Origin: a virus
Taxonomy: Duplodnaviria; Heunggongvirae; Uroviricota; Caudoviricetes
DNA length: 17,240 nt
Reading direction: 5' to 3' (one strand)
Virus record (IMG/VR): IMGVR_UViG_2671180674_000015
Span: 1-17,240 of that record
Numbering within the stretch: the stretch's first letter is position 1; each line of letters opens with the position of its first letter. The notes under the pieces were generated by a model, which saw nothing but the letters and a program-made list of their open reading frames with translations, searched no databases and had not been told where the DNA came from. Positions 8,089-8,748 of the stretch are shown here, piece after piece. Position numbers and translations under genes: made by a program.

Positions 8089-8748
8089 ATGAAAATGAAA
8101 TGGTATGAACTGGCTAGATCCAGAATGAAAGAGCTCGGCATAACTCAAGAGAAGTTAGCCGAAGAACTAGGTATGACGCAGGGTGGGATTGGACACTGGT
8201 TGCGCGGATCTCGTCATCCATCTCTTAGTGATATTGGTGTGGTGTTTAAATACCTTGGTATTGATAACATATCATTCAACCACGACGGGACATTTTCACC
8301 TGTTGGCGAATACTCATCGGCCCCAGTTAAAAAACAATATGAGTACCCTGTTTTTTCTCATGTTCAGGCTGGGATGTTCTCTCCAGAACTCAGAACCTTT
8401 ACCAAAGGCGATGCGGAGAGATTGGTAAGCACAACCAAAAAAGCCAGTGACTCTGCATTCTGGCTTGAGGTTGAAGGTAACTCAATGACCGCACCAACAG
8501 GTTCCAAGCCCAGCTTTCCTGACGGGATGTTAATTCTGGTTGACCCTGAGCAGGCTGTTGAGCCAGGCGATTTCTGTATAGCCAGACTTGGTGGTGATGA
8601 GTTTACCTTCAAGAAACTGATCAGGGATAGCGGTCAGGTGTTTCTACAGCCACTAAACCCACAATACCCAATGATCCCATGCAATGAGAGTTGTTCCGTT
8701 GTGGGGAAAGTTATCGCTAGTCAGTGGCCTGAAGAGACGTTTGGGTGA
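8089..8748 (+). CDS. cI: CI prophage repressor, chimeric: heterologous N-terminal HTH domain with lambda-like linker and S24 autocleavage C-terminal domain
   Basis: From [17 protein letters not shown] through the C-terminal ...[12 protein letters not shown] it matches lambda CI (Ala-Gly cleavage site, Ser in GNSM, Lys in KKL). The N-terminal [24 protein letters not shown] is not lambda-like. ATG at 8089 (or 8095). Confidence 0.85.

Follow-up and report, generated by a model that had tools for sequence, protein, structure and literature searches.

The question raised by this locus is whether the CI repressor encoded at 8089..8748 on the plus strand of the window (the whole stretch of 17,240 nucleotides analysed here) is a chimera that joins a foreign DNA-binding domain to a lambda cleavage domain, and whether it defines, together with its Cro protein and operators, an immunity of its own. 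The best explanation, to which we give a probability of roughly nine in ten, is the immunity switch of a lambda-like Escherichia coli prophage of the VT2-Sakai/Nil2 immunity type, wired as a standard lambdoid circuit. The sequence anatomy of this switch, its identity to known phages and its operator statistics are observed directly in the window. The switch is real but already described, its repressor being of the VT2-Sakai/Nil2/Stx1-phage CI type; what is added here concerns which way the exchange with lambda went, the match of the OR layout to that of L/ST64T, and a database start at 8053 that is probably too far upstream.

Two halves of the cI gene

The cI reading frame (8089..8748, plus strand, 219 codons and a stop), nested in a longer open frame (8047-8748), encodes an HTH_3 domain at residues 11-58 (Pfam, E = 1.9e-10, above the gathering score) followed by a Peptidase_S24 domain at residues 87-209 (Pfam, E = 1.1e-28), and the best match among solved structures is the full-length lambda repressor 3BDN (PDB, E = 2.6e-96). 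The combination of HTH and S24 domains with a Ser/Lys dyad and a linker Ala-Gly places the protein in the class of LexA/CI-type autocleaving repressors.

Comparison with lambda CI divides the protein sharply in two. Residues 1-83 (8089..8337, plus strand), which comprise the DNA-binding domain and the upstream hinge, are not lambda-like, with 19 of 83 identical positions (23%) and no nucleotide similarity, whereas residues 84-219 (8338..8748, plus strand), which comprise the cleavage-site region and the S24 catalytic/oligomerisation domain, are of lambda type and identical at 135 of 136 positions (99%), including the cleavage site, S150/K193 and the oligomerisation surface of lambda CI (PDB 3BDN, 1F39, 2HNF). 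The sole replacement, L112 for lambda W130, falls after the cleavage site and before the catalytic core. When the nucleotide sequences are aligned, the joint lies at the TAT codon that encodes Y84 (lambda Y102 in precursor numbering), at nucleotide 8338, and residues A94-G95, S132 and K175 correspond to lambda A112-G113, S150 and K193 (precursor numbering), all conserved. The preliminary description of this DNA had proposed a protein that is lambda-like from the linker to the C-terminus, that keeps the Ala-Gly site and the Ser/Lys dyad, and that differs from lambda in its N-terminal HTH; the alignments agree with it on each of these points, and the strings that it quoted are present (the linker string at residues 84-100 and QGGIGHW at residues 31-37 of CI, QGAIGHW at residues 26-32 of Cro).

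A blastn comparison of the window with the lambda early region returns four matching blocks, namely 5773-7386 (cII 3' end, O and P; 98.9%), 8338-8748 (the cI C-terminal part up to the stop codon; 94.9%), 10100-10227 (the spacer after rexB; 90.6%) and 11430-12910 (ral to gam; 98.9%), and no similarity to that region between them, including 7387-8337. The lambda-like island that runs from the hinge to the cI stop is a clean textbook case of mosaic joints at domain boundaries. It differs from lambda at 21 nucleotides, and since 20 of these differences are synonymous, the C-terminal module of cI is functional and subject to purifying selection, and its age exceeds that of the flanking blocks with their divergence of ~1%.

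The cII gene (7324..7620, minus strand; Phage_CII, Pfam E = 7e-34) is likewise mosaic against lambda. Its joint lies at 7386, its C-terminal tail (...TNKKRPAATERSEQIQMEF) is identical to that of lambda CII, and its N-terminal DNA-binding part is not lambda-like and is annotated as HK022-like in AP005153; this is a second joint at a domain boundary, and it bounds the same heterologous segment as the joint in cI.

Operators, Cro and the predicted circuit

The operators of the switch share the core ARTACA-N3-YGT and form two clusters, OR (8006-8080) and OL (10274-10348). The pattern ARTACANNNYGT matches eight times in the window against 0.48 matches expected, a count that none of 200 shuffles reaches, and seven of the eight matches fall within 8007-8076 and 10275-10344, where the motif search defines six 17-bp sites. 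On the right, the cro-proximal OR1 (8006..8022, minus strand, AAGTACATATTGTATTT) is the published OR1 of VT2-Sa and an operator in the annotation of AP005153, while OR2 (8038..8054, plus strand, AAATACATATTGTGCAT) and OR3 (8064..8080, plus strand, CAGTACAAAGCGTAATA), the latter overlapping the predicted -10 element of PRM, each lie one nucleotide from their published VT2-Sa counterparts. On the left, OL3 (10274..10290, plus strand, AAATACAAAGCGTTATA) is a direct repeat of OR3, OL1 (10332..10348, plus strand, AAGTACATATCGTACTA) is an inverted copy of OR1, and OL2 (10306..10322, minus strand, AATACAATTTGTTGTAA) lies between them. Centre-to-centre spacing is 32 and 26 bp in both clusters, which are separated by a gap of ~2.3 kb. 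Cognate operators had been expected at 8000-8085, and the three predicted OR sites at 8006-8080 are found there and match the published VT2-Sa operators: of the oligonucleotides listed in Table S1 of PMC10742460, OR1 is identical to the window and OR2 and OR3 differ by 1 base. The EMSAs of that study used lambda CI, not VT2-Sa CI (PMC10742460).

The neighbouring cro gene (7762..7977, minus strand), divergent from cI, encodes a protein of 71 aa of the all-alpha HTH_3 type (Pfam, E = 4.3e-12; PDB 28tn_A, E = 4.5e-17), which by sequence falls outside the lambda Cro fold family and is 30% identical to lambda Cro. The proposal that it shares a recognition-helix motif with CI is confirmed and can be extended: beyond QGGIGHW in CI and QGAIGHW in Cro, the CI N-domain and Cro are homologous over the whole HTH (22 of 62 positions identical, BLASTP E = 9e-13), well above chance, with a local alignment score of 93 as opposed to 27, near noise, for the lambda pair.

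Gene order is the same as in lambda (cII-cro-OR-cI...OL-N), and the backbone is lambda-like (O, P, and ral to gam at 98.9%), unlike the short-tailed Stx phage backbone of the VT2-Sakai type. The locus nevertheless lies outside imm-lambda, with an N-domain at 23%, a Cro at 30% that is of HTH_3 type rather than lambda Cro, and operators that are not TATCACCGC-type: those of lambda read TATCACCGCCAGTGGTA, those of the window ARTACA-N3-YGTAYT, and the lambda spacing differs from 32/26 bp. Rightward, cII is followed by an O gene of lambda type (7291..6392, minus strand); leftward, OL1 is followed by an N-like gene (10539-10811, plus strand; PHROG 271, E = 4e-25). An Rfam search finds no match in the immunity region and a single one in the window, the cIII thermoregulator Lambda_thermo (12434-12492, plus strand, 84 bits), which lies in a lambda-like block and is expected in an early-left operon of lambda type.

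On the model of lambda biology, from which binding, cooperativity, cleavage and promoter use are taken, CI dimers would bind the three 17-bp operators of OR and the three of OL through the N-terminal helix-turn-helix, and so repress PR (cro-cII-O-P, minus strand) and PL (N, plus strand). The part of CI from Y84, with its lambda-type hinge and S24 domain, should supply dimerisation, pairwise cooperativity, OL-OR looping and self-cleavage, lambda-like cooperativity being assumed here given that the operator spacing is unlike that of lambda. RecA*-stimulated self-cleavage at A94-G95 by S132/K175 would lead to prophage induction, and Cro, whose recognition helix is homologous, would bind the same operators and shut off PRM.

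Promoters can be assigned tentatively by hand. PRM is predicted from the sequence and the annotation of AP005153, with a -35 element at 8054-8059 and a -10 element AATAAT at 8077-8082; PR is predicted as TTTACT, 17 nt and TATTGT, overlapping OR1 and OR2, and PL as TTGATC, 17 nt and TACTAT, overlapping OL1. The hexamers are hand-assigned because a consensus promoter scan called none of the three: it gave no candidate for PR or PRM in OR at its threshold, and its hits in the window are no more numerous than in shuffles. The geometry of PRM agrees with the AP005153 annotation and with an ATAAT...ATGAAAA block that is invariant in five diverged OR regions. With its -10 element at 8077-8082, PRM would start transcription at A8089, and the cI mRNA, probably translated from the ATG at 8089 with which it begins, would be leaderless. 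The cI mRNA of lambda is leaderless as well. A candidate CII-binding repeat of PRE (7598..7611, plus strand, TTGCTGTAACTTGT) points toward cI; as CII boxes (TTGC-N6-TTGY) occur in the window at chance level (2 found against 2.2 expected), it is the position of the repeat inside the first codons of cII, as in lambda, that suggests this assignment.

Relatives of the repressor and direction of the exchange

The comparison of the N-terminal part proposed in the preliminary description was run as a tblastn search of the first 83 residues against 50,697 phage records. At least 56 of these records carry CI residues 1-83 at 100% identity, and among the matches listed there is no repressor of 55-96% identity. 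The nearest distinct relatives among them are C2 of ST64T/L (~55% over 67 aa) and the repressor of the epsilon34-type phage Oslo (52%), followed by repressors of Vibrio, Klebsiella and Proteus phages (~50%).

Taken domain by domain, identity to the window CI is 23% in the N-domain and 99% in the C-domain for lambda, 30% and 82% for S107, 52% and 80% for Oslo and SPN9CC, 47% (47-55% overall) and 47% for ST64T, and 36% and 64% for P8983, while lambda and P8983 are 59% and 65% identical to each other. At least four types of N-domain are therefore found attached to the lambda-class C-module, in support of a joint at the hinge that has been used repeatedly. HK97 was considered as a third N-domain partner and rejected, as HK97 and HK106 carry lambda immunity (98%/100%). 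Assignment of the window CI to the BAA2326/P13374 type of Stx2 repressor was also rejected: the representative of that type, P8983, has the 36% and 64% given above and an OR without the motif. The BAA2326 repressor is described as ~61% identical to lambda in both domains, and its operators, among them ATAACTGTGCGTAATG, as weakly symmetric (Chakraborty et al. 2018, PMC5977221), and CI proteins of its type are uniformly diverged from lambda.

A whole-length counterpart of the window CI is the CI of epsilon34/c341/Oslo/SPN9CC, a colinear homologue with a related N-domain and a lambda-class C-domain, accompanied by a Cro at 46% identity and a proposed operator consensus, WTACRAWWTGTAT, with the same TACA...TGTA core (PMC2629481). 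The same modular argument has been made for the epsilon34 repressor, with L, VT2-Sa and Nil2 named as its closest N-domain relatives (PMC2629481).

This colinearity bears on the claim that a heterologous DNA-binding domain had been placed on a lambda cleavage domain. The discontinuity is real, but the direction of transfer was assumed, and on sequence comparison lambda could equally be the recipient, to which simple parsimony leans slightly. The lambda CI would then be the recombinant, the L/epsilon34-like N-domain with the present C-module would be the older combination, and lambda would have acquired its C-module from a phage of VT2-Sa type. Consistent with this, the window CI and the epsilon34-type CI (Oslo, SPN9CC) run on through the hinge (PVKKQ-YEYPVF versus PVKPQ-FEYPFF), and their identity climbs gradually from ~50% to ~80% without a step. 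One exchange suffices with lambda as recipient, whereas lambda as donor requires a second, as it leaves the epsilon34-type CI at 80-81% identity to lambda in the C-domain and 21-22% in the N-domain. The argument is weakened by the fact that the CI proteins of lambda and P8983 (BAA2326-like) also look colinear (59% and 65%), and that in S107 a third type of N-domain precedes a C-domain of 82% identity, the transition being sharp; exchanges at the hinge thus recur, and parsimony is a weak guide. We therefore regard lambda as recipient as a tentative possibility, below even odds. Seen against lambda, the present cI gene would be one half of an old exchange at the hinge.

The operators in turn bear on the claim of a distinct immunity. 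As they differ from those of lambda, a distinct immunity may be proposed from sequence; against this stand some cross-immunity between lambda and VT2-Sa phage, reported by Fattah et al. (2000) as cited in PMC10742460 (2023), and a layout shared with phage L. The same citing paper attributes to Fattah et al. (2000) the high C-terminal and low N-terminal homology of this repressor to lambda CI.

The shared layout raises the possibility that immunity specificity is the same as, or overlaps, that of Salmonella phage L/ST64T, only the C-terminal induction/oligomerisation module being different. The OR of ST64T (783-905 in locus coordinates), compared with 7978-8094 of the window, contains three sites that have the left half-site of the window (AATACA) and right halves that match those of the window site by site (GTACT; TGTG; CGTAAT), at a spacing of 34/26 bp as against 32/26 bp. 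The recognition helix of the ST64T repressor, TQGAIGHWLNG, is homologous to that of the window CI, and the Cro proteins, 69% identical, also have homologous recognition helices (TQGAIGHW in the window, TQGAIGHY in ST64T). Yet overall identity between the repressor N-domains is no more than 47-55%, the operators of the two differ in their central bases and flanks, and repressors less than 92% identical have been treated as unpredictable in specificity (PMC2629481), so that a common specificity seems to us somewhat unlikely. The C-terminal domain of ST64T/L C2 is P22-like, only 47% identical to that of the window CI. If operator specificity were nonetheless shared with phage L, the two repressors would be a natural example of the same DNA specificity combined with two unrelated modules for induction.

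A separate suggestion concerns polylysogens, in which the CI proteins of lambda and VT2-Sa could conceivably form mixed dimers or tetramers because their dimerisation/cooperativity modules are 99% identical. We consider this, and separately the sharing of operator specificity with phage L, unlikely; mixed oligomers, if they form, would link the switches of prophages resident in the same cell, through dominant-negative interference or partial cross-immunity.

Spread of the switch, neighbouring genes and the annotated start

The assignment to the VT2-Sakai/Nil2 immunity type that we favour is based on the whole-length CI, the same operators and Cro. The VT2-Sakai cI is identical to that of the window at 218 of 219 positions, the one difference being a stop codon in that record, and both halves of CI are found 100% identical in the phage records 2B8, ev017, 2G7b, PA4 and PA27, and contiguous in the last four. 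At the DNA level, cII-cro-OR-cI is 97.1% identical to VT2-Sakai and over 60 phage records match the interval 7600-8800 at 97-99.5% identity (megablast), the cro-OR-cI DNA of VT2-Sakai-type phages showing the same 97-99.5% range with CI, Cro and OR as in the window. Records of this immunity type include the Stx phages VT2-Sakai (Sp5), AP005153 (Stx1-converting), Stx2 II, Nil2, 2851, 1717 and YYZ-2008, as well as the PA-series Stx2a phages, and the non-Stx phages ev017, ev207, 2G7b, PhiR11_1 and Dewey. Of 5,426 complete E. coli genomes, 631 (about 1 in 9) contain the heterologous segment 7387-8337 at ≥80% coverage.

The discovery value of the locus is accordingly low, this being the well-known immunity region of VT2-Sakai-type Stx phages on a lambda-like backbone; the two-module relation of its repressor to lambda CI was already published in 2000. 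Its practical value is modest, in that the repressor governs the induction of Stx prophages in O157:H7 and is widespread in E. coli. Genomes of PA-series phages, PA4 and PA27 among them, were obtained from cultures induced with ciprofloxacin (PMC4587872), which fits the SOS inducibility predicted for prophages that bear this CI.

In the VT2-Sakai record (NC_000902), the stop codon takes the place of Q31 in the recognition helix of CI (~2968-2970 in locus coordinates); the sequenced phage thus has a repressor-null allele, and its cI is annotated as two fragments. Inactive alleles of this gene therefore exist, and many E. coli prophages are defective (PMC4587872), which could make the present locus a decayed remnant in a cryptic prophage with a repressor that no longer functions. 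We judge this very improbable, as the window has intact cI, cro, cII, O and N genes, a CI of identical sequence is found in genome records deposited for phages (ev017, 2G7b and PhiR11_1 among them), and the divergence of the CI C-terminal part, synonymous bar one replacement, shows selection.

The window differs from phages of the VT2-Sakai type in the genes downstream of cI, where it has a DUF6978/DUF1828 pair. Two overlapping reading frames (8795-9337 and 9325-10101, plus strand) lie directly 3' of cI and before the lambda-like terminator stretch, in the slot that rexA-rexB occupy in lambda, so that rexAB is replaced in the window. The first encodes 180 aa with a weak match to DUF6978 (PHROG 2017, E = 7e-74), the second 258 aa with DUF1828 (PHROG 1960, E = 2e-119), and the two show weak similarity, in the correct order, to the PADLOC candidate defence system PDC-M24 (A, 3.8e-4; B, 4e-7). 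A close match to the cassette DNA is absent from the 50,697 phage records, and the cassette occurs in 61 of the 5,426 complete E. coli genomes, always in the chromosome. Its putative function, as a module expressed from the prophage, may be in exclusion or defence. Immediately after the cassette, the lambda-like block 10100-10227 (90.6%) contains a GC-rich hairpin that has a T-run (AAACCCGGCCTCAGCGCCGGGTTTTCTTT, 10104-10131, plus strand) and that probably terminates the cI operon; a simple terminator scan does not call it, and the matching stretch of mEp332 is labelled 'terminator'.

A last point concerns the start of cI. Databases (GenBank, PGAP) begin the protein at ATG 8053, giving 231 aa, and ATG 8095 is a further possible start. 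We favour 8089 over 8053 because the extra codons would run through OR2, OR3 and the -10 element of PRM; the sequence ATGAAAA at 8089, 6 nt after the conserved ATAAT, is invariant across five OR regions that elsewhere are only 75% identical. The start at 8053 is thus probably too far upstream, with 8089 the likelier one, and public records probably carry a wrong cI start codon. The database extension amounts to 12 codons (8053-8088), crossing OR2, OR3 and the predicted -10 element. C2 of ST64T has a similar N-terminal extension (..NTSRNNLR..), which resembles translated operator/-10 DNA rather than protein conservation, and the same annotation of a long start is seen at three other loci (L009, 1505-2200; L002, 4454; L003, 416).
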